From positions 1 to 13,045 of the forward strand of contig JAYWEM010000036.1 of NCBI GenBank assembly GCA_043779265.1: DNA of 13,045 bases, written 5' to 3'. Positions 1-11,136 of this stretch are shown here, in pieces. Under the pieces are notes generated by a model. It had not been told where the DNA came from and did no database searches. It saw only the letters and a list, made by a program, of their open reading frames with translations. This stretch comes from a bacterium. Its GTDB lineage: Bacteria > Eisenbacteria > RBG-16-71-46. A program made the position numbers and the translations under genes. Numbering within the stretch: the first letter of the stretch is position 1; the number at the start of each line of letters is the position of its first letter.

Positions 1-108
1 GGTGTTCGACCGGATTCCCAGCGGCCCCCATTCAACGGCGATCTGGCGCGACAGCATGTGGACGCCCGCCTTGCTGGGGCTGTAGGGGCCGGCATTGCCG
101 ACCGGTTC
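1..108 (-). CDS. Internal fragment of a short-chain dehydrogenase/reductase (SDR); partial, runs off the window start
   Basis: Manual translation of the minus strand 108->1 gives EPVGNAGPYSPSKAGVHMLSRQIAVEWGPLGIRSNT, with the SDR YxxxK catalytic motif followed by the typical (L/I)AxEWGPxGIRxN segment. Not in the ORF track. Confidence 0.75.
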
Positions 109-109
109 G

Positions 110-1087
110 GCCGATGTGATCCACGCCGAGTCGGCGCGGGCATCGGAGTTGGCCCTGTCGCAGTTGGCGGGCGAACTCTCTCGCCGCTTGAGGGCGATCG
201 ATGATCGCCTCCGCGACGCACTGGCCGAGACCGAGGCGCGCGTGGATTTCGCCGAGGATGTCGGAGGTGTCGAGGTGCCGCCCCACGTGCGGGCCGAGAT
301 CGCCGCGCTCGCCGAGGAACTCGAGGCCATGCTGGCGGGCAGCGCGTTCGCGCGTGCGGTGCGAGAGGGCGTGCACGTTCCGATCGTCGGGTTGCCTAAT
401 GTCGGCAAGTCGTCGTTGTTCAACGCTCTGCTCGGCGAATCGCGGGCGATCGTGACCGCCGTGCCCGGGACGACGCGGGACCGCGTGAGTGAGGCGATCG
501 AGTTGCATGGCGTGCGCGTCACCCTTTCCGATACGGCGGGCGTCCGCGAGACCGACGATGTGGTCGAGTCCGAGGGCGTCGAACGAGCGATCGGTACGCT
601 CGCCGGTGCCGCGTGCGTCGTGTGGGTGGTCGACGGCAGCCAACCGCTCTCGAAGGCGGATCGTTCGTTGGGCGAGAGGCTCGCTCGAGCGCGCGTCGTG
701 GTGGCGCTGAACAAGGCGGACCTGCCGAGCGTGACGCCTCGATCGGCGATCGAGGCGCTGATTCCGGACGCGGTGGATGTGATCGAGGTCTCCGCGACGA
801 GGGCGGGCGGGGTCGAGGCGCTGCGCGCCCGTCTGGCCGAGACGGTCGGTGGCGACCCCCATGCAGCCCTGGGGGCGGCGGTCGCCAATGCACGGCATGC
901 CGAGGCGCTGACGCGTACGGCGGGAGCGCTGCGCCGTGCGGGGGCCGTGGCGGCCGATGGCGCGCCGGGTGAGATCGTCGCGCTGGAGCTGCGCGAGGCG
1001 CTCGCAGCGTGCGGCGAGGTGACCGGAGAGGGACTGGGCGAGGACATGCTGGATCGCATCTTCGGCCGCTTCTGCATCGGCAAATGA
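110..1087 (+). CDS. mnmE: tRNA modification GTPase MnmE (TrmE), 5'-truncated
   Basis: ADVIHAES helical region, G1 [10 protein letters not shown], switch PGTTRD, G3 DTAG, G4 NKAD and the C-terminal FCIGK motif. The N-terminal domain is missing: in-frame TAG at 83-85, and homology starts at about 110. Confidence 0.93.
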
Positions 1088-3042
1088 GCGCGCCGACGAC
1101 TCCGCGTGGGTTGGATCTGGGGCCCGCCCCGGGCGTGCCCGTCGAGGCGCTGCCGCTCGATGCCGAGGCGGCGTCTCACCGTTCCGGGCACTTCGACGTG
1201 GTCGTGGTCGGTGCGGGTCATGCTGGCTGTGAAGCGGCGCATGCCGCGGCGCGCATGGGGCTATCGGTTGCGCTGTTGAGCGTGCAGATCGGCGACACGG
1301 CGAAGATGTCGTGCAACCCGGCGATCGGCGGCGTGGCCAAGGGGCACATGGTGCGCGAGCTCGATGCGATGGGTGGGTTGATGGGCCGCATCACCGATTC
1401 GGCCGGCATCCAGTTCAAGGTTCTCAACCGCGGCCGCGGGCCTGCGGTGTGGTCGCCGCGGGCGCAGTGCGACAAGCGCGCCTATTCGGCCGTGATGCTC
1501 GATGTGCTCGTGGCGACGCCCGGCCTGTCGTTCGTCGCCGGAACCGCCGAACGTGTGCTGATCGCGGCCGATGGATCCGCGGAGGGGCTCGAGCTGTCCG
1601 ATGGCCGCCGCCTGATGGCGCGCGCGATCGTGATCACGCCCGGCACGTTCCTCGACGGCGTGATGCACGTGGGCGAGCGGCGTGTCCCGGGTGGTCGGAT
1701 CGGGGAGCATGCGGCGCTCGCGCTCAGTCGTTGCCTCGGAGACCTCGGGCTCGAGCGAGGGCGGCTGAAGACCGGCACGCCGCCTCGGCTGCACAAGGGC
1801 AGCATCGACTACGCGGCGTGCACCGAGGCGCCGGGCGATGAGCCGCCGCGGCCGTTCTCGCATTGGACCGAGCGGCTCGAGTTGGACCAGGTGCTGTGCT
1901 GGACGACGCATACCAATGCCGCGACGCATGCGGTCATCCAGAACAACATCGCGCGCTCGCCGCTCTATTCGGGCGGCATCCAGGGGGTGGGGCCGCGTTA
2001 CTGTCCCTCGCTCGAGGACAAGGTGGTCAAGTTCCCCGAACGTACGTCGCACCATCTGTTCCTCGAGCCTGAAGGCCGCGAAGTGGATGAGATCTACGTG
2101 AATGGCGTCTCGACGAGCATGCCCGAGGACGTGCAGCTGGAGTTCCTCCGCACGATCGTCGGCCTCGAGCGCTGCGAGATGATGCGGCCCGGTTACGCCG
2201 TCGAGTACGACTTCGTGCTGCCGCACCAGCTCGACCACACGCTCCAGGTGAAGCACGTGCCCGGGCTGTGGTTGGCGGGGCAGATCTGCGGCACGTCGGG
2301 CTACGAGGAAGCTGCGGCGCAGGGCTTCATCGCAGGCGTCAATGCGGCGCGGCGTGTACGACGTGAGGCAGCGTTCGTGCTGAGACGCGACGAGGCCTAC
2401 ATCGGCGTGCTGGTGGACGACCTGGTGACGCGCGAGCATCGCGAGCCCTACCGCATGTTCACCTCGGCCGCCGAGCATCGACTGCTGCTTCGCGCCGACA
2501 ATGCGGATGAGCGTCTGGCCGAGAAGGGCCACGCGATCGGATTGCTGAGCGATGAGCAGTTGGAGCGGGTTCGTGCCCGCTATGCCGCGATCGAGGCGGA
2601 GGAGTCGCGACTCTCGCGTGTCTCGGTGCGGCCCGCGGGCGAGACGGGGCGCTCGGGCCTGACGGCTCGCGATTGGCTCGCGCGACCCGAGGGTTCGTAC
2701 GCGGGGCTGGCCTCGCTCCAGGCCGCTCCCGAACTGGCGGAGGCGGAGGGCGAGGCGCTGGAGGTGCGCATCAAGTACCGCGGCTACATCGAACGCCAGG
2801 CACGCACTGCGGCGCGCGCGGCAGCAGCCGAGTCGATGGCTCTGCCCGAGGCGCTGTGGTCGGGCGATCTGCGCGGCGTGTCCCATGAGGGAGCGGAGAA
2901 GCTGCGCCGGTGGCGGCCGGCCTCGTTGGCGCAGGCAGGGCGCATCGCCGGGGTGTCGCCGTCGGATGTTGCGGTGCTCATGGTGCTGGCGCGTCGTTCG
3001 GAACAGCCCGCCTCGGCGGGTGCGAGGCATAGTCGCGCGTGA
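1084..3042 (+). CDS. mnmG: tRNA uridine-5-carboxymethylaminomethyl modification enzyme MnmG (GidA)
   Basis: [15 protein letters not shown] motif, [58 protein letters not shown] at 1084 overlaps the mnmE stop (ATGA). Confidence 0.97.
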
Positions 3043-3397
3043 CGCTCGTGAACACGGTATCCACCGTGATCCCATCGCGTTGGAGCATCAGGCGCCCGTA
3101 GCGTTTTGAGGTGTGGGTGACTGCGGAATCCCTGTGGGCGAACAGCGAGTCGATCCGTGTCGCGACCACGCGATGCTCGGTGATGATGCCCCAGTCGTGG
3201 AGGATCGCGGCGCGCTTCTCGTCTCGGTCCAGGACCTCGCCGTGTTCGTCGCCGACGGAATCGTTCTCGACCTGGAAGTCGGGAGTGAGTACCGAGCGAT
3301 GCGCGTCGAAGTCCTCGCGCCTGGTGGCTTCGTTGCGTCGGGGGTGCTGGGCTTCGATCCCGCGACTCGCGACGCCGGACGGGCGATCGCGCCACAC
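2978..3397 (-). pseudogene. Degenerate or truncated NTF2-like (SnoaL/DUF4440-type) gene remnant, antisense between mnmG and rsmG
   Basis: The minus frame has coding-like GC3 codons and reads GIEAQHPRRNEATRREDFDAHRSVLTPDFQVE...TRIDSL...DSAVTHTSKRYGRLMLQRDGITVDTVFTS, resembling an NTF2-fold helix/helix/strand pattern. Possible GTG start at 3397 with GGAG upstream. The 3' end runs into mnmG. Family assigned by eye. Confidence 0.45.
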
Positions 3398-3475
3398 ACT
3401 GGGACACTCCAGGGGCCGCAATCGTCGGAGACGAGCGGGCGGGCCGCGGCAGGTGTGAGGTGCGGTGAAACCAGC

Positions 3476-3490
3476 TATGTTGCGGGCATG
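3476..3490 (+). promoter_or_regulatory. Candidate -10 element (TATGTT) 6 nt upstream of the rsmG ATG; possible leaderless promoter
   Basis: TATGTT at 3476-3481, then GCGGGC and ATG at 3488, with no SD sequence. The same TATGTTGCGG 10-mer occurs in the parA promoter. Confidence 0.35.
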
Positions 3491-4243
3491 TTCCCACCCA
3501 GAGGGCGGCAGAAAAGTGGGCGTCCGGCCCCGCCCAGGACGCAGAGACAGGCACCGGATCCGCGACGCAGTCGGGTCGATCCCGGCGTGCTCATCGCCAG
3601 GCAGCGCTGGTCGCTCATCGAACCGCTGGTTCCGGGCGACGATGCCGCGCGTGCGGAGTCGCTCGGCAAGCTCCGCGAGTACGGCCGGATGTTGCTCGAT
3701 TGGAATCAGGGCGTCTCGAACTTGATCTCGAGACACGACGAGCTTCGCCTGGTCGAGCGGCACATGCGCGAGTCGATCGAGCCCGCCCGCATTCTGATCG
3801 ACTCGGGCTGCAAGCGTTTCGTCGACTTCGGGTCGGGAGCCGGGCTGCCCGTCATCCCTCTGCTGCTGTGCGGCGTGGGCGAGCACTGGACCGCGGTGGA
3901 GTCGCGCCGCAATAAGACGTTGTTCATGCGTAAAGTCAAGCAAGACATGAAGTTAGAGAATATCAACATCGTGACGAATCGGCTCGAGGTGGCGATCGGA
4001 GAGGATTCCGCGGCGCTGGCGTGCGATGGATTCACGTCGCGCGCCACGATGACGCTCGGGCCGACGCTCGAGATGGCCAGCCTGATCGTCGAGTCGGGCG
4101 GCAAGGCGTTCCTGTGGAAGGGCAGCAGCCATGAGGAGGAGCGTGCACAAGGCGAGGCGGAGTGGAGCCAGAGTTGGAAGTTCGAAGGCGCTCACGCGAT
4201 CGGCGAAGGCCCGACAGTAGTCTGTGTATTCGCAAGGCTATAA
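3488..4243 (+). CDS. rsmG: 16S rRNA m7G527 methyltransferase RsmG (GidB)
   Basis: WNQGVSNLIS, RHMRES, SAM motif VDFGSGAGLP, VESRRNK, TSRA, WKG. Canonical position between mnmG and parA. Start taken as ATG 3488; the longer ORF-track start is unlikely. Confidence 0.92.
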   Translation: MFPPRGRQKSGRPAPPRTQRQAPDPRRSRVDPGVLIARQRWSLIEPLVPGDDAARAESLGKLREYGRMLLDWNQGVSNLISRHDELRLVERHMRESIEPARILIDSGCKRFVDFGSGAGLPVIPLLLCGVGEHWTAVESRRNKTLFMRKVKQDMKLENINIVTNRLEVAIGEDSAALACDGFTSRATMTLGPTLEMASLIVESGGKAFLWKGSSHEEERAQGEAEWSQSWKFEGAHAIGEGPTVVCVFARL

Positions 4244-4269
4244 ACGTTTTACTGATATTTGAAACGACA

Positions 4270-4285
4270 GGTTCCACGTGGAACA
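4270..4285. promoter_or_regulatory. parS: parS centromere-like site
   Basis: GGTTCCACGTGGAACA, containing the perfect 14-bp palindrome GTTCCACGTGGAAC. Matches the bacterial parS consensus TGTTNCACGTGAAACA and lies upstream of parA. Confidence 0.9.
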
Positions 4286-4291
4286 TGATGC

Positions 4292-4321
4292 TTGAGTGCG
4301 CTGCATGGACACTGGTATGTT
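4292..4321 (+). promoter_or_regulatory. Putative sigma70 promoter for parAB
   Basis: TTGAGT (4292-4297), 18-bp spacer, TATGTT (4316-4321), with an extended -10 TG at 4313-4314. Confidence 0.5.
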
Positions 4322-4451
4322 GCGGCCCCACAGCGAGTGCTGTTCGCCTCCTCGCCTGTGCTCACCGCACACCTTCGCAGGGCCGGCTGAGCCTCACGGC
4401 CCCGCATTCCTCCCCCGCAGCGCCGGAGTCGCGCGCGTAGAGAGTCAGGGA

Positions 4452-5213
4452 ATGGGACGCATCATCTCCATCGCCAGCCAGAAGGGCGGCGTAGGGAAAA
4501 CGACGACGAGCATCAATCTGGGGGCTTGCCTGGCGCAAGAGGGCAAGCGTGTCCTCCTGGTCGACATCGATCCGCAGGGCAACTGCACCAGTGGCGTCGG
4601 GATCAACGGCAACGATCAGCGCAATACGATCTACGAGGTGCTGATCGGTCAGGCCGAGATCGAGCAGGCGATCCTGCCCACGGCGCTGAGCACGCTGGAT
4701 GTGCTGCCCGCTGGACAACGGCTCTCCGGGGCCGAGGTCGAGCTGGTCGGGATGATGGCTCGCGAGATCAAGTTGAAAACGGCGCTGAGCCGGATCCGCG
4801 ACCGCTACGACTACATCCTCATCGACAGCCCGCCTTCACTGGGGCTGTTGACCGTGAACTCGCTCACGGCCTCCGACTCGGTGATCATCCCGCTCCAGTG
4901 CGAGTATCTCGCGCTCGAGGGGCTGACGCAGCTCATCGGAGCCATTCGACTCGTACAGGACCATCTGAATCCGGGCTTGCGCATCGAGGGCGTCCTGCTC
5001 ACCATGTTCGACGCGCGGCTCTCGCTCTCCAAGCAGGTGGCGGACGAGGCGAGGAAGTTCTTCTCCGACCGTGTCTATCGGACGGTGATCCCGCGCAACG
5101 TGCGATTGAGCGAGGCGCCATCGTTCGGTAAGCCCATCGTGCTCTACGACCCGCATTCAAGCGGGGCAGACAGTTATCGTGAACTCGCTCGAGAGGTGAT
5201 CGAACATGAGTAG
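4452..5213 (+). CDS. parA: Chromosome partitioning ATPase ParA (Soj)
   Basis: Deviant Walker A QKGGVGKTTT, VDIDPQGN, IDSPPSLG, PLQCEYLALEG, IPRNVRLSEAPSFGKP. ATG at 4452. Confidence 0.96.
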   Translation: MGRIISIASQKGGVGKTTTSINLGACLAQEGKRVLLVDIDPQGNCTSGVGINGNDQRNTIYEVLIGQAEIEQAILPTALSTLDVLPAGQRLSGAEVELVGMMAREIKLKTALSRIRDRYDYILIDSPPSLGLLTVNSLTASDSVIIPLQCEYLALEGLTQLIGAIRLVQDHLNPGLRIEGVLLTMFDARLSLSKQVADEARKFFSDRVYRTVIPRNVRLSEAPSFGKPIVLYDPHSSGADSYRELAREVIEHE

Positions 5214-6096
5214 GAAGGTGCTTGGCAGGGGGCTCGAAGCCCTCATCTCGCCTGCAACAGCCGCCGAGGCCGCGTCGGGTCGAACAGCCGTGGCGGAAGC
5301 TCCGGCCATGCCCGTGCAGGGAGGCGTCGCGAAGCTCCCCACCGGGTCCATTGGCACGAACCCGTTCCAGCCTCGGCGTCGCTTCGATGACGAGTCGTTG
5401 GGCGAGCTCGCGGACTCCATCCGGGCGAATGGCATCATCCAGCCGGTGCTCGTCCGCCGAATCGGGCCTGACGACTTCCAGCTCGTGGCCGGCGAGCGCC
5501 GCCTGCGGGCCGCGCACCTGGTCGGGCTGGAGACCGTGCCTGCCATCATCCGCGATTACGACGACCGCGAGATGATGGAGATCGCGCTCATTGAGAACAT
5601 CCAGCGCGAGGACCTCAACCCGATCGATGAAGCCCGTGCCTACGAGGCGCTGATCGAGAAGGTCGGCCTGACCCACGAGCAGCTCTCCGAGCGCGTCGGC
5701 AAGCAGCGCAGCTCCATCTCGAACAGCCTTCGCCTGCTTGGCCTGCCGCCCGAGGTGCTGGAGATGGTTTCACGTGGAACACTCTCAGCTGGAAATGGTA
5801 GAGCGTTGTTGGGACTCGAGAAGCCGGGAGACGTTCTCTCGGCGGCCCGCTACGTCGTCAACAAGGGATTCTCGGTCCGGCGGACCGAGGCGTTCGTTCG
5901 CCGCCGTCAACGGACCGTCCACTCGCGGCCGCGCAAGGCCAAGCTCGAGGGCTCGGGTGAGTTCGAGACCAAGCTCCAGCAGCAGTTCGGCACCCACGTT
6001 GTCATCACCCCTGGCCGCAAGGGTGGCAAGGTGGAGTTCGAGTTCTACAGTCAGGAGGACCTAGAGCGATTGCTCGAGGCGTGGGGCGTCCTCTAG
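5206..6096 (+). CDS. parB: Chromosome partitioning CTPase ParB (Spo0J)
   Basis: N-terminal LGRGLEALI, NPFQPRRRF, GIIQP, arginine patch AGERRLRA, ENIQREDLNPIDEA, HTH. Overlaps the parA stop. Confidence 0.96.
   Translation: MSRKVLGRGLEALISPATAAEAASGRTAVAEAPAMPVQGGVAKLPTGSIGTNPFQPRRRFDDESLGELADSIRANGIIQPVLVRRIGPDDFQLVAGERRLRAAHLVGLETVPAIIRDYDDREMMEIALIENIQREDLNPIDEARAYEALIEKVGLTHEQLSERVGKQRSSISNSLRLLGLPPEVLEMVSRGTLSAGNGRALLGLEKPGDVLSAARYVVNKGFSVRRTEAFVRRRQRTVHSRPRKAKLEGSGEFETKLQQQFGTHVVITPGRKGGKVEFEFYSQEDLERLLEAWGVL
5766..5781. promoter_or_regulatory. parS: parS site inside the parB coding sequence
   Basis: GGTTTCACGTGGAACA, near-consensus parS, encoded with locally atypical AT-rich codons (GTT TCA CGT GGA ACA). 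Confidence 0.88.
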
Positions 6097-6207
6097 CCTC
6101 GCATCGCCTTGGATAGTGTTCCGGTGCAGCGTCGGGTGAACGGATCACCCGGCCCGAGTGAAGTGGCCGGCAGCCGGCGTCGATGGATCGACTCGATGGG
6201 AGGCCCC

Positions 6208-6600
6208 ATGTTCCGAAGCAAGCAAGCGCCTGAGGAAGCCCCGCCGGCGATCACCGTCATCGGAGTGAGCTCGAGCTTCCGGGGCACGATCATGGTGACC
6301 GGGACTCTCCAGATCGATGGCGAGTTCGACGGCGACATCCTCAATTGCGATCGACTCGAAGTCGGGGAGCACGGAGTCATGCGCGCGGATGTCGAGGTCA
6401 AAGAGGCCCTCGTGAAGGGCAAGGTCGTCGGCAACATCCGAGCGCTCGGGTCGATCGAGATGAAGTCGGGCTCGCGGGTCGAGGGCGACGTCTCGGCCGT
6501 CAACGTGATCATGGAGCCAGGAGTCTTCTTCTCGGGCCGCTGTACCATGCTCGAGGGAACCGCGGGGGCAGTCCTGCTCGGCGACTCGCGCGGAAGGTGA
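6208..6600 (+). CDS. Bactofilin (polymer-forming cytoskeletal protein, DUF583)
   Basis: TVIGVSSSFRGTI...LQIDGEFDGDI...LEVGEHGVMRADV...VKGKVVGNI...VEGDV...MEPGVFFSGRC beta-helix repeats. GGAGG RBS at 6199-6203 before ATG 6208. Confidence 0.9.
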   Translation: MFRSKQAPEEAPPAITVIGVSSSFRGTIMVTGTLQIDGEFDGDILNCDRLEVGEHGVMRADVEVKEALVKGKVVGNIRALGSIEMKSGSRVEGDVSAVNVIMEPGVFFSGRCTMLEGTAGAVLLGDSRGR

Positions 6601-8844: not shown

Positions 8845-8940
8845 GGCCCGGGCGCACGCTCGTCACGTGAACAGTCCCGCGTCGTTCTCCCATCGGGTGC
8901 ATCCAAAGCACAAGCCGCCCGAACCCTCGTGGAGAACCCG

Positions 8941-9717
8941 ATGAAAATGCGCCCCCTGGCTCACGATAACGGCTCACCGCATGACGAACCGCACGTGCAG
9001 ATGGTCTCCGTCGCCGAGCTCCCGACGCAATTCGGGCAGTTCCGTGCCGTCGCGTTCACTCCTGATGAACGAGGCGATGAGCACATCGCCATCGTCCGAG
9101 GCCAGGTGCGCGACCAGAAGGACGTGCCCATCCGCATCCACTCGGAGTGCCTGACCGGGGATGTCCTCGGATCGCTTCGGTGTGACTGTCGCGAGCAACT
9201 CATGGGCTCGCTCGAGATGTTGGGCGGCATGCCGATGGGTGTGCTGCTCTATCTCAGGCAAGAGGGCCGCGGCATCGGGCTGACCAACAAGATCCGCGCC
9301 TACGCACTGCAGGACAGTGGGCACGACACCGTCGAGGCCAACCACCTGCTGGGGTTCGGCGATGACGAGCGCAACTACCGAGTGGCGGCCGAGATGCTGC
9401 AGGCGCTCGGAGCCACGAGCGTGCGCCTGTTGACCAACAATCCGCGCAAACTCGATGGCCTGCGCGAGCACGGCATCCGAGTCGTCGGACGGATCCCGCT
9501 CGTCATCTCACCGACGCGGCACAACGCTGGCTATCTGCTCACCAAGCAGAAGCGCTCCGGGCACTGGCTCAATATGGTCGAGCGACCAGCGAATCACGAG
9601 CCGACGAAGAACGAAGCCAAGGAGACGAGCCTCGCGCCAGCGGAGGCAGGCGGTTCGGGCCGCGTGGTCACTGCCGTCCTTCCTCCCAAGCTAAGAGGGC
9701 GGAAACGGCACGCCTGA
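8941..9717 (+). CDS. ribA: GTP cyclohydrolase II (monofunctional)
   Basis: LPTQFGQF, RIHSECLTGDVLGSLRCDC (Zn-binding Cys), YLRQEGRGIGL, LLTNNPRK, YLLTK..RSGH. GGAGA RBS before ATG 8941. Confidence 0.94.
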   Translation: MKMRPLAHDNGSPHDEPHVQMVSVAELPTQFGQFRAVAFTPDERGDEHIAIVRGQVRDQKDVPIRIHSECLTGDVLGSLRCDCREQLMGSLEMLGGMPMGVLLYLRQEGRGIGLTNKIRAYALQDSGHDTVEANHLLGFGDDERNYRVAAEMLQALGATSVRLLTNNPRKLDGLREHGIRVVGRIPLVISPTRHNAGYLLTKQKRSGHWLNMVERPANHEPTKNEAKETSLAPAEAGGSGRVVTAVLPPKLRGRKRHA

Positions 9718-9828: not shown

Positions 9829-9878
9829 GAGTGCCACACAGCGGACCGCGATAGCGTCCGGACCGCTGCGTGGCACTC
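9829..9878. repeat. Long imperfect inverted repeat / hairpin B starting at the TnpA-like stop codon
   Basis: GAGTGCCAC-A-CAGCGG-A-CCG ... CGG-A-CCGCTG-C-GTGGCACTC. The A/C mismatch becomes G-U on the minus strand. Confidence 0.75.
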
Positions 9879-10353
9879 AACTGGCTGCTGCCCACGCCTC
9901 GGAGTGCATGGGGTCGCTCGGGTTCCGATGGGTGTGGGCCAGACGCGCGCGCGTCTTCTCGAGTCGGAGCGGACTGACGGTCTCGACCGCATAGCGCTCG
10001 TCCCACAACAGATTGCCTCGCATCCAGACACGCAGCTCGGGGTGATCGAGCATGAGCGTCATCGTCGTGCGGCCCTTCATCTCGCGCACCGCACTCGCGA
10101 TGCTCTGAGTGGGGCGAAGCGCCATCAGCACATGGACGTGGTCGTGACCCGAGACCACCTCGATCAGTTCGTAGCCGCGGTCCTCGCACGCCTGCTCGAT
10201 CAACCGATGCAGCGACTCGAGATGGCGCTCCTTCAGGACGGGCCGACGGCCCCGCGTGCTCCAGGTGACGAGGTAGTGAAGCTGACTACGGTAGACGGGC
10301 TCCCAACGATCCATCAGTGCGTCCTTCACCTGCGGCGCCAGATCGAGTTCCAC
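9877..10353 (-). CDS. tnpA: IS200/IS605-family Y1 (HUH) transposase-like protein lacking the catalytic Tyr
   Basis: LHYLVTWSTRGRRPVL, HUH motif DHVHV (H72/H74), ..EMKGRTT.., HPEL, LLWDERYAVETVS all match TnpA. The helix that normally carries YxxxQ reads LEKTRARLAHT. AGGAGG RBS 7 nt upstream of GTG 10353. Confidence 0.85.
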   Translation of the reverse strand: MELDLAPQVKDALMDRWEPVYRSQLHYLVTWSTRGRRPVLKERHLESLHRLIEQACEDRGYELIEVVSGHDHVHVLMALRPTQSIASAVREMKGRTTMTLMLDHPELRVWMRGNLLWDERYAVETVSPLRLEKTRARLAHTHRNPSDPMHSEAWAAAS

Positions 10354-10379
10354 GGTGCCACCTCCTGCGGGGATTTCGG

Positions 10380-10393
10380 TGAACAGATGTGCA
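10380..10393. promoter_or_regulatory. Putative LexA (SOS) box upstream of the TnpA-like gene
   Basis: TGAAC-AGAT-GTGCA (minus strand TGCAC-ATCT-GTTCA), one mismatch from the palindrome in the lexA promoter, with the same ACTGCACA flank. Confidence 0.65.
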
Positions 10394-10403
10394 GTGCGGG
10401 GGT

Positions 10404-10437
10404 GAGAAGAACGGGAGCGAGTGCGACTCGCTCCCGT
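10404..10437 (-). terminator. Perfect 12-bp hairpin after lexA; probable intrinsic terminator or attenuator
   Basis: ACGGGAGCGAGT-GCG-ACTCGCTCCCGT (10411-10437), followed on the minus strand by a weak pyrimidine tail TCTTCTC. Confidence 0.55.
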
Positions 10438-10451
10438 CGGGGGATCGTGGG

Positions 10452-11051
10452 TCAGCGGATCGTGCGCATGACGCCTCGCACCACACCCAGGATGTGGAAC
10501 GATTGCTCTGCACTGACGACGATCGGCTGGTACTTGGTATTGGCTGCGACGAGTTCGATGCGTCCGCGCTTCGGCTGGTAGTACTTGACCGTCGCCTCTT
10601 CCTCGAGCAGAGCCACGACGATGTCACCGGCGCTCGCCTCGGAACGCTTCTGGACCACGACGTAGTCGCCTTCGAGGATGCCCGCATCGATCATCGAATC
10701 GCCACGGACCTGGAGTGCGAAGAGGTCGCGCGTCTCGCCGAACAGTCCATCGAGCTCGAGCGAGCCCGAGAAGCTCTCCTCGGCGGTGATCGGCTGGCCT
10801 GCGGCGACGCGACCGAGGATCGGGATGCCGATCGCGGCGTTGTCGCGCCGGGTCGAGGCGATCCCTCGCGAGACGCCGCGCTTGATGCTGATCATCCCGG
10901 CTTTCTCGAGCATGTCGGTGTAGTAGCGGACGCCGTTGGTCGAGGTGATCTGGAACGCGACCCCGATCTCACGGATCGTCGGGGCCGATCCGCGCTCACG
11001 CCGGAACTTCTGGATGAAGCTGTGGATGTCTCGGGCTCTCTGATTGAGCAT
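10452..11051 (-). CDS. lexA: SOS repressor LexA
   Basis: wHTH APTIREIG...STNGV, cleavage site GRVAAG, catalytic Ser (GDSM) and Lys (ATVK). ATG at 11051 with GAGG/AGGA upstream; 199 aa. Confidence 0.96.
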   Translation of the reverse strand: MLNQRARDIHSFIQKFRRERGSAPTIREIGVAFQITSTNGVRYYTDMLEKAGMISIKRGVSRGIASTRRDNAAIGIPILGRVAAGQPITAEESFSGSLELDGLFGETRDLFALQVRGDSMIDAGILEGDYVVVQKRSEASAGDIVVALLEEEATVKYYQPKRGRIELVAANTKYQPIVVSAEQSFHILGVVRGVMRTIR

Positions 11052-11106
11052 GTCGTCCTGACCTCGTCGGAGAACTGGTCCGCGGCGCGGACCCGGCACG
11101 TCCGGC

Positions 11107-11136
11107 ACCGTAGTGCACGCTTGTGCAGTCCGTCAA
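11107..11136 (-). promoter_or_regulatory. lexA sigma70 promoter
   Basis: Minus strand TTGACG (11136-11131), 18-bp spacer, TACGGT (11112-11107). Confidence 0.65.
11114..11127. promoter_or_regulatory. LexA operator (SOS box) TGCAC-N4-GTGCA in the promoter spacer
   Basis: Perfect palindrome TGCAC-GCTT-GTGCA between the -35 and -10 elements of lexA. Fits the Fibrobacter-type box TGCNC-N4-GTGCA. Confidence 0.8.

Follow-up and report, generated by a model that had tools for sequence, protein, structure and literature searches.

The gene at positions 9877–10353 (minus strand) of the analysed window, a 13,045-nt stretch of bacterial DNA, encodes a 158-aa protein that derives from the TnpA transposase of IS200/IS605 elements and lacks its catalytic tyrosine. 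We name this gene tnpL here and its three families f1 (to which the gene of the window belongs), f2, and f3. Comparison across genomes makes it very likely that tnpL has been domesticated and brought under LexA control.

TnpL retains the TnpA fold and lacks the catalytic tyrosine

The assignment of tnpL is based on its open reading frame, Pfam and NCBIfam profiles, and a predicted fold. The frame contains zero internal stops across 158 aa. TnpL matches Pfam Y1_Tnp with 79 bits (E 4e-22) and passes NCBIfam transpos_IS200 (78 bits, cut-off 55), and it does not reach the cut-off of REP_Tyr_transpos (38.4 bits, cut-off 80). With the structure model (mean pLDDT 79), the first Foldseek matches were the TnpAs of ISDra2 and IS608 (E 5e-10). 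The model superposes on a TnpA structure with a Z of 16.6 and an rmsd of 2.3 over 111 aligned residues, compared with only Z 10.1 for the RAYT structure 4er8. Sequence identity to the solved TnpAs is 21–28%, and a search of the ESM Atlas returned ordinary Y1_Tnp clusters only.

The D71-H72-V-H74 segment is intact in TnpL, with the HUH motif H72-V73-H74 encoded at 10132–10140 (minus strand). A family profile of 49 sequences aligns with ISDra2 TnpA gap-free through helix D, placing R137 (codon at 9943–9945, minus strand) in the column of the catalytic Y132, and T141 and H142 (9928–9933, minus strand) in those of Q136 and H137, respectively. The F of the Y132F mutant (PDB 2xo6) falls in the R137 column, which checks the register; unlike the profile alignment, a single-sequence phmmer alignment has a 4-residue gap in the helix-D region. 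The only Tyr residues of TnpL are at positions 21, 27, 61, and 121, and in no register does helix D gain one. The three conserved ones correspond to Y16, Y22, and Y116 of ISDra2 TnpA, none of which is the nucleophile. Furthermore, the TnpA motif YH..W..KYR appears as YLVTWSTRGR, in which the conserved His is replaced by Leu. Judged from its sequence, TnpL is not able to form a phosphotyrosine bond.

These results agree with the first-pass annotation, which had described an intact HUH motif, R137 and T141 at the Tyr and Gln positions, the change of YH..W..KYR to YL..W..RGR, an uninterrupted frame, and an AGGAGG ribosome-binding site. The latter lies at 10361–10366 (minus strand), 7 nt ahead of the GTG start, and is preceded by a conserved CCCCGC. 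It had also stated that no tnpB is present, and indeed none occurs in the window and none was found in the 92%-complete genome. Its statement that no minus-frame Tyr codon follows downstream needs correction, as there is one at 9851–9853, 24 nt past the stop, although Y121 is the last Tyr and the frame is not shifted. The N-terminal extension that it noted does carry WEPxYRS, a motif specific to the family and located on a predicted helix, but reaches only ~5 residues beyond ISDra2 TnpA.

Other accounts of the missing Tyr were considered and rejected. A frameshift is not the cause, since the next minus-frame Tyr codon is past the stop and far from helix D. Y21 does not qualify as a replacement nucleophile, as it is also present in ISDra2 TnpA and is Cys in 8 of 9 f3 orthologs. 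A RAYT register (H140 as the Tyr, N144-P145 as the NP) is contradicted by the best 120 of 911 matches, in which H140 is found in 48, N144 in 3, and P145 in 12.

The C-terminal A-x-A-S tail of TnpL (9880–9891, minus strand) is conserved and degron-like, and this conservation suggests that it may be a degron. The tag peptide of the tmRNA of this genome (G000:C71 c[15481,15833]) ends in ALAA; no clpX exceeded the cut-off in the 92%-complete genome.

Age of the tyrosine loss and erosion of the catalytic parts

Close homologues were represented by the best 120 of 911 matches, namely TnpL itself and 119 others that are 65–86% identical and, where names are given, mostly belong to Candidatus Eisenbacteria. 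Among the 35 genome orthologs, 30 could be scored for helix D (of the other five, three have no such helix, one is incomplete, and one carries a frameshift), and the control was formed by the 114 of 125 non-family representatives that extend over the tail. No Tyr occurs in helix D among the close homologues (0/119) or the scorable orthologs (0/30), whereas 96/114 non-family relatives have one. By these alignments, the Tyr loss in the tnpL lineage is old and fixed.

The remaining active-site residues are differently conserved among the families. R137 is present in all of the best 120 of 911 matches, H72 in 117, and H74 and H142 in 119 each, while the Gln ligand column (T141) is variable in the same sample. 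The f1 genome orthologs likewise keep H72 and H74 (both 23/23), H142 (22/23), and R137 (20/23). The weight that the first-pass annotation gave to the intact HUH motif thus holds for f1 but not for the other families, since H72 and H74 are retained in only 0/9 and 3/9 of the f3 orthologs, and H72 in 1/3 of the f2 orthologs. Helix D is missing in all three f2 proteins, whose chains stop just past W117. Outside f2, 30/32 orthologs have R or K at position 137. R90, P105, R108, and W117 do not vary across the orthologs (35/35), each of which also has K or R at position 93. On this comparison, the catalytic parts (HUH and helix D) erode across the sister families and the TnpA core persists.

Apart from these families, proteins of 250–300 aa with two Y1_Tnp domains in tandem were observed (P0145, P0147, P0148, P0155, P0158, P0161, P0164, and others), and some of them have one domain without the helix-D Tyr.

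Distribution, copy number, and selection

In a sample of the phylum, profile matches were obtained within the order (probably Eisenbacteria) in 64/68 genomes (55/59 for f1, 6/6 for f3, and 3/3 for f2), and outside it in 3/82, all weak, of which the single readable one is a canonical IS200 TnpA. The four f1 genomes in which tnpL was not found are all fragmented, two of them being 94% and 97% complete. The genome of the window has a single Y1 match, tnpL itself. Across 91 genomes of the order, a Y1_Tnp match is present in 84, and 75 of these 84 have exactly one. TnpB exceeded its cut-off in 2/61 genomes, and in one genome (G071), tnpL is accompanied by matches to TnpA and TnpB that share a contig. 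One unpublished genome (G026) is counted among tallies such as those of tnpL presence (64/68 and 3/82), recA matches, Y1 copy number, and TnpB; claims beyond such tallies do not depend on it.

Two genomes deviate from the common pattern. The ortholog in G018 carries a frameshift and no longer has the operator described below. The three tnpL copies of G102 are whole syntenic lexA-tnpL-ribA-eamA loci and not insertions; two of these locus copies have frameshifts in several genes, and the assembly is likely mixed or error-prone.

Codon-based estimates gave omega values of 0.109 (GY) and 0.151 (MG) for tnpL in 22 f1 genomes, with 0.084 and 0.132 for lexA. For eight f3 genes, the values are 0.052 and 0.073 for tnpL and 0.036 and 0.060 for lexA. 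The NG86 medians are higher (0.30 in f1 and 0.46 in f3), and those of lexA are similar. TnpL distances track those of LexA, with a Mantel rho of 0.82 (n = 33), and of 0.46 in f1 alone (n = 22). A quick tree with 126 rows places f1, f2, and f3 on one branch among ordinary TnpAs (SH-aLRT 82). Collectively, tnpL is near-universal in one order, essentially single-copy, vertically inherited, and under a dN/dS in the purifying range (~0.11 versus 0.08 for lexA); as read from these rates, it is kept by selection. The view of a domesticated protein that is dead for Tyr chemistry, put forward in the first-pass annotation, is upheld: the orthologs do not keep YxxxQ, the codon-model dN/dS is 0.05–0.15 and not near 1, the gene is a single copy at a fixed locus instead of multiple mobile copies, and no other Tyr takes the place of the nucleophile.

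A probable LexA operator and the SOS regulon

The lexA gene (10452–11051, minus strand), identified by Pfam and NCBIfam, lies directly upstream of tnpL on the same strand in all 53 distinct genomes with both genes, and one further locus is cut by the contig edge. Neither this neighbour nor the operator and cassette described below figure in the first-pass annotation. The Ala-Gly cleavage site and the Ser/Lys dyad of LexA are invariant in 29/29 aligned orthologs, and recA is present. A TG(C/A)AC-N4-GT(G/T)CA palindrome was found ahead of tnpL in 52/53 intergenic regions (43 exact, 9 with one mismatch), a count that is partly circular because the motif was derived from those regions. In the window, the probable LexA operator of tnpL (10379–10394, minus strand) has the core TGCAC-N4-GTTCA and is the top site of the genome scan. 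As independent tests, the scan, the recA promoters, and the dinB cassettes of f1 were examined. The scan, with a matrix built from relatives, gave 24 matches of at least 11 bits, led by tnpL, an integron integrase, lexA, DUF6504-dinB-DUF72, and mraZ, with recA in seventh place. At the recA promoters (28 of 30 loci; one unpublished and one short locus were dropped), the site occurs with one mismatch in 11/28 versus 0/112 control windows, and with at most two in 24/28 versus 19/112. The dinB cassettes of f1 have the operator at no more than one mismatch in 29/30 cases, and the remaining one is cut by the contig end.

Fibrobacter has a similar LexA box. The tnpL site matches 16 of 17 positions of the Myxococcus xanthus LexA box consensus, which LexA binds in gel shifts according to the accessible text of PMC9705874 and which is also tabulated in PMC2248561. 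Compared with that box, the putative LexA site of the tnpL lineage is more symmetric (TGCAC-N4-GTGCA). The conserved operator common to lexA, recA, and dinB suggests that tnpL is probably a member of the LexA (SOS) regulon, in which LexA would bind and damage would induce.

The lexA gene has its own operator, TGCAC-N4-GTGCA (11113–11128, minus strand), between the -35 (TTGACG) and the -10 (TACGGT) of a promoter recognized by eye (11107–11136, minus strand). A consensus scan for promoters and terminators gave no site at all, including none for tnpL, and it missed this lexA promoter as well. Nor did it call the terminator-like hairpin between lexA and tnpL (10410–10438, minus strand), which has a weak U-tail here and T5 in most relatives. 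The 5′ leader of lexA contains a GTGCCRG motif with a short hairpin (11077–11099, minus strand). This motif is found at 37/42 f1, 3/8 f3, and 0/3 f2 lexA loci, at 0/8 lexA loci from outside the order that have this type of operator, and visibly in most f1 dinB-cassette leaders. The lexA leader folds no better than shuffles (z -0.11). In f1, GTGCC follows the -10 both of lexA and of the relocated DUF6504-dinB cassette (L113–L142), and this common leader may have been left by a duplication of the promoter or may serve as a target site.

Several other sites of the scan are recorded here. An exact operator lies upstream of mraZ, at the head of a division and cell-wall cluster (L044:2807-2820; G000:C179:34305), and points to a possible SOS control of cell division. 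Another exact operator precedes the integron integrase (L042:1007-2245; G000:C139:3230), with a TcmP/radical-SAM-pair gene and a second dinB paralog in divergent orientation. Weaker operator-like sites are found at a DEAH-box helicase (TIGR03817-like) and a DinB-superfamily (PF05163) gene (L047:472-3102; L046:2076-2594). The recA matches in seven frames of 580–817 aa end at model position 201 (G086:C429, G022:C1, G024:C26, G017:C15, G012:C5, G013:C47, and G005:C69), and RecA is probably intein-bearing in these.

Gene neighbourhood and origin of tnpL

The families differ in what follows tnpL. All 12 f2/f3 loci continue from tnpL into DUF6504 and/or dinB-DUF72. DUF6504 follows tnpL in 6/12, with a stop/start overlap in three f3 loci, and DUF72 follows dinB in 11/12, as far as the contig reaches. 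In f1, DUF6504-dinB-DUF72 is located elsewhere with its own operator, neither tnpL nor lexA lies within 1.5 kb of it (30/30 dinB loci), and no co-transcribed gene is found downstream of tnpL. Outside the order, lexA is directly followed by DUF6504 and/or dinB in 10/15 genomes without any tnpL match, several of them with the same operator. The lexA-DUF6504-dinB-DUF72 cassette appears to be ancestral, and sister orders have it without tnpL. The gene order suggests that, in the ancestor of the order, this cassette received an IS200-type tnpA between lexA and DUF6504. The inserted gene would then have lost the IS ends and the catalytic Tyr, gained its own LexA operator, and become fixed. In f1, the DUF6504-dinB-DUF72 part would later have moved off with an operator of its own, leaving tnpL beside lexA.

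A strong hairpin (9829–9878, no strand assigned) lies past the tnpL stop, between the convergent ribA and tnpL. It is single-copy and its sequence is not conserved, and it is probably a terminator instead of an IS end. No conserved IS-end hairpins were found, the hairpins flanking tnpL being single-copy. No family of REP-like repeats was detected among 515 hairpins of the 92%-complete genome, in which the commonest 9-bp arm occurs four times and from which assembly can lose repeats; this search for REP and IS-end hairpins gave no cognate hairpin for TnpL.

Further observations concern the surroundings. The stand-alone ribA (window 8929–9717) between eamA and tnpL is present in some f1 genomes only. 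In one genus (L024–L028, L030), a conserved non-coding stretch of ~70 nt stands between tnpL and dinB in place of DUF6504; Rfam gave 0 matches on the window and two f3 loci (L024, L027). An mnmE-mnmG-rsmG-parA-parB-bactofilin cluster occupies window positions 95–6600. Clusters of the mnmE-mnmG-rsmG-parA-parB type are usually sited near the replication origin, and the lexA-tnpL locus may be origin-proximal given this cluster.

Possible function of TnpL

As a domesticated and non-catalytic protein of the SOS response, TnpL would bind structured ssDNA at damaged forks, a binding role to which we give about even chances. Upon DNA damage, cleavage of LexA would allow tnpL to be expressed along with recA and dinB, as the shared operator suggests. 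TnpL keeps the TnpA core with the basic RE(K/R)G and P-x-LR...N..W segments, which by homology we take to be the hairpin- or DNA-binding face, and would act, probably as a dimer, as a non-catalytic binder of hairpin- or fork-like ssDNA at damaged forks. Arg137 may hold a phosphate at the spot of the former Tyr attack, and the bound protein would protect or present the DNA for processing by RecA and Pol IV. TnpA binds subterminal hairpins (accessible text of PMC6006769), and that of IS608 also binds fork-like DNA, Holliday junctions, and the beta clamp according to the available part of PMC5027513, traits usable by a damage response. On the other side, the genome search gave no cognate hairpin, and f1 keeps HUH and H142, which binding alone need not require. 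A more specific version, which we put forward tentatively and with clear doubt, is a fork-sensing adaptor that would keep the finding of fork-like ssDNA and of the sliding clamp, drop the chemistry, and serve the Pol IV-DUF6504-DUF72 damage-tolerance machine in this order. Since sister orders have the dinB cassette without tnpL, the Pol IV link may reflect the insertion site only.

An SOS feedback regulator is rather unlikely but has several points in its favour. TnpL would bind a hairpin, of RNA or of DNA, in the leaders of SOS genes, such as the GTGCCRG-hairpin leader of lexA and the dinB cassette, or modulate LexA directly like small LexA co-factors, for which gp7 of phage GIL01 is a precedent (accessible text of PMC4551915), and the A-x-A-S tail would make it short-lived. 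In f1, f2, and f3 alike, the gene has kept its place beside lexA, including where the dinB cassette has departed, and the leader motif is common at f1 lexA loci and f1 dinB cassettes and absent at the eight outside-order lexA loci compared. However, this motif is scarce in f3 and missing in f2, the leader folds no better than shuffles and may be a promoter-duplication relic, and clpX is not over the cut-off in this genome. Tyr-independent chemistry in f1, with D71, H72, H74, and H142 binding a metal and R137 positioning a phosphate in a hydrolytic nuclease or end-processing reaction, would account for the near-invariance of the three His residues and R137 in close homologues and f1 orthologs, and we consider it improbable. 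The Gln ligand column is variable, and HUH (f3) or helix D (f2) is gone from orthologs that are syntenic, carry the operator, and are selected just as strongly, so the function common to the families needs no such site.

A guard against IS200/IS605 transposition during SOS, by poisoning active TnpA dimers or covering IS-end hairpins while ssDNA is abundant, seems quite improbable, and the dominant-negative inhibitor suggested in the first-pass annotation is disfavoured with it. TnpA active sites are built in trans by two monomers (accessible text of PMC3597680), and the apparent rarity of active elements in the order, seen in the Y1 and TnpB tallies, could be an effect of the guard. On the other side, the 75 of 84 genomes without any other Y1 gene have no resident target, outside-order genomes without tnpL also rarely match (3/82), G071 has its TnpA and TnpB matches alongside tnpL, and metagenome assemblies lose IS copies. 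In addition, TnpL is only 21–28% identical to solved TnpAs, and a wild-type/Y127F heterodimer is still capable of strand transfer, as given in the same part of PMC3597680. It is very improbable that tnpL is an IS relic, decaying or hitch-hiking, or that TnpL is a transposase active through another Tyr. The database label of IS200/IS605 transposase, the broken G018 ortholog, and the three G102 copies speak for such a reading. Against it, omega is near that of lexA, the G102 copies are complete syntenic loci, neither IS ends nor extra copies are found, no substitute Tyr is conserved, and f1 has no co-transcribed downstream gene to hitch-hike with.

Comparison with known systems

TnpL resembles the IS200/IS605 TnpAs (ISDra2 2xm3/2xqc, IS608 2vhg, IS200 2f4f, and 2ec2) in fold, size, the HUH motif (in f1), and the W..Y motif of strand 4. 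Unlike them, it has Arg/Thr in place of YxxxQ and Leu for the YH His, and its gene has neither IS ends nor tnpB, is one fixed copy of vertical descent, and carries a LexA operator. RAYTs (TnpA-REP) are domesticated Y1 enzymes with HUH and YxxxNP-type motifs, associated with REP repeats (PMC6006769 and PMC8266576, in their accessible parts). The HUH and Y motifs are common to all classes of PMC6006769, whose accessible text makes no mention of LexA or SOS. Like a RAYT gene, tnpL is a single-copy, host-kept Y1 HUH gene; in contrast, TnpL falls under the REP_Tyr_transpos cut-off, is closer in fold to TnpA than to 4er8, and has no Tyr and no REP family.

Dead accessory subunits are known in SOS mutagenesis, ImuA/ImuB being one case. 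Others are iRadA/PPB2 with PolB2 and UmuD′ with UmuC, and DUF72 accompanies other translesion polymerases (available part of PMC11791011). TnpL is like these subunits, as described there, in being a catalytically inactive protein whose gene belongs to a probably damage-inducible cassette together with those of a translesion polymerase and DUF72; it differs from them in having another fold, in that the cassette also exists without tnpL, and in being unlinked in f1.

No description of a Tyr-less or LexA-controlled TnpA, of the motif, or of an Eisenbacteria SOS response was found in the accessible literature that was searched. Stages of the change can be seen in living families, with the Tyr lost, HUH lost, and helix D lost, and the insertion site is recoverable. 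The analysis also supplies a LexA box and a small regulon for an uncultured lineage, and it warns that genes of the tnpL type are miscounted as IS elements. As a small protein, TnpL lends itself to direct study in vitro.

TldR and other nuclease-dead domesticated TnpB/Cas12f proteins are RNA-guided transcription factors, according to the accessible text of 10.1101/2023.11.30.569447. Like TldR as presented there, TnpL comes from an IS200/IS605 gene, has lost catalysis, and now appears to be a host factor; unlike the TnpB-derived and RNA-guided TldR, it is the transposase itself, and no guide RNA was found. In the accessible sources, RAYTs keep the catalytic Tyr and the known dead IS200/IS605 domesticates are TnpB. 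If true, the fixation of a TnpA without its Tyr in the SOS regulon would represent a new route from a mobile element to a host repair factor.
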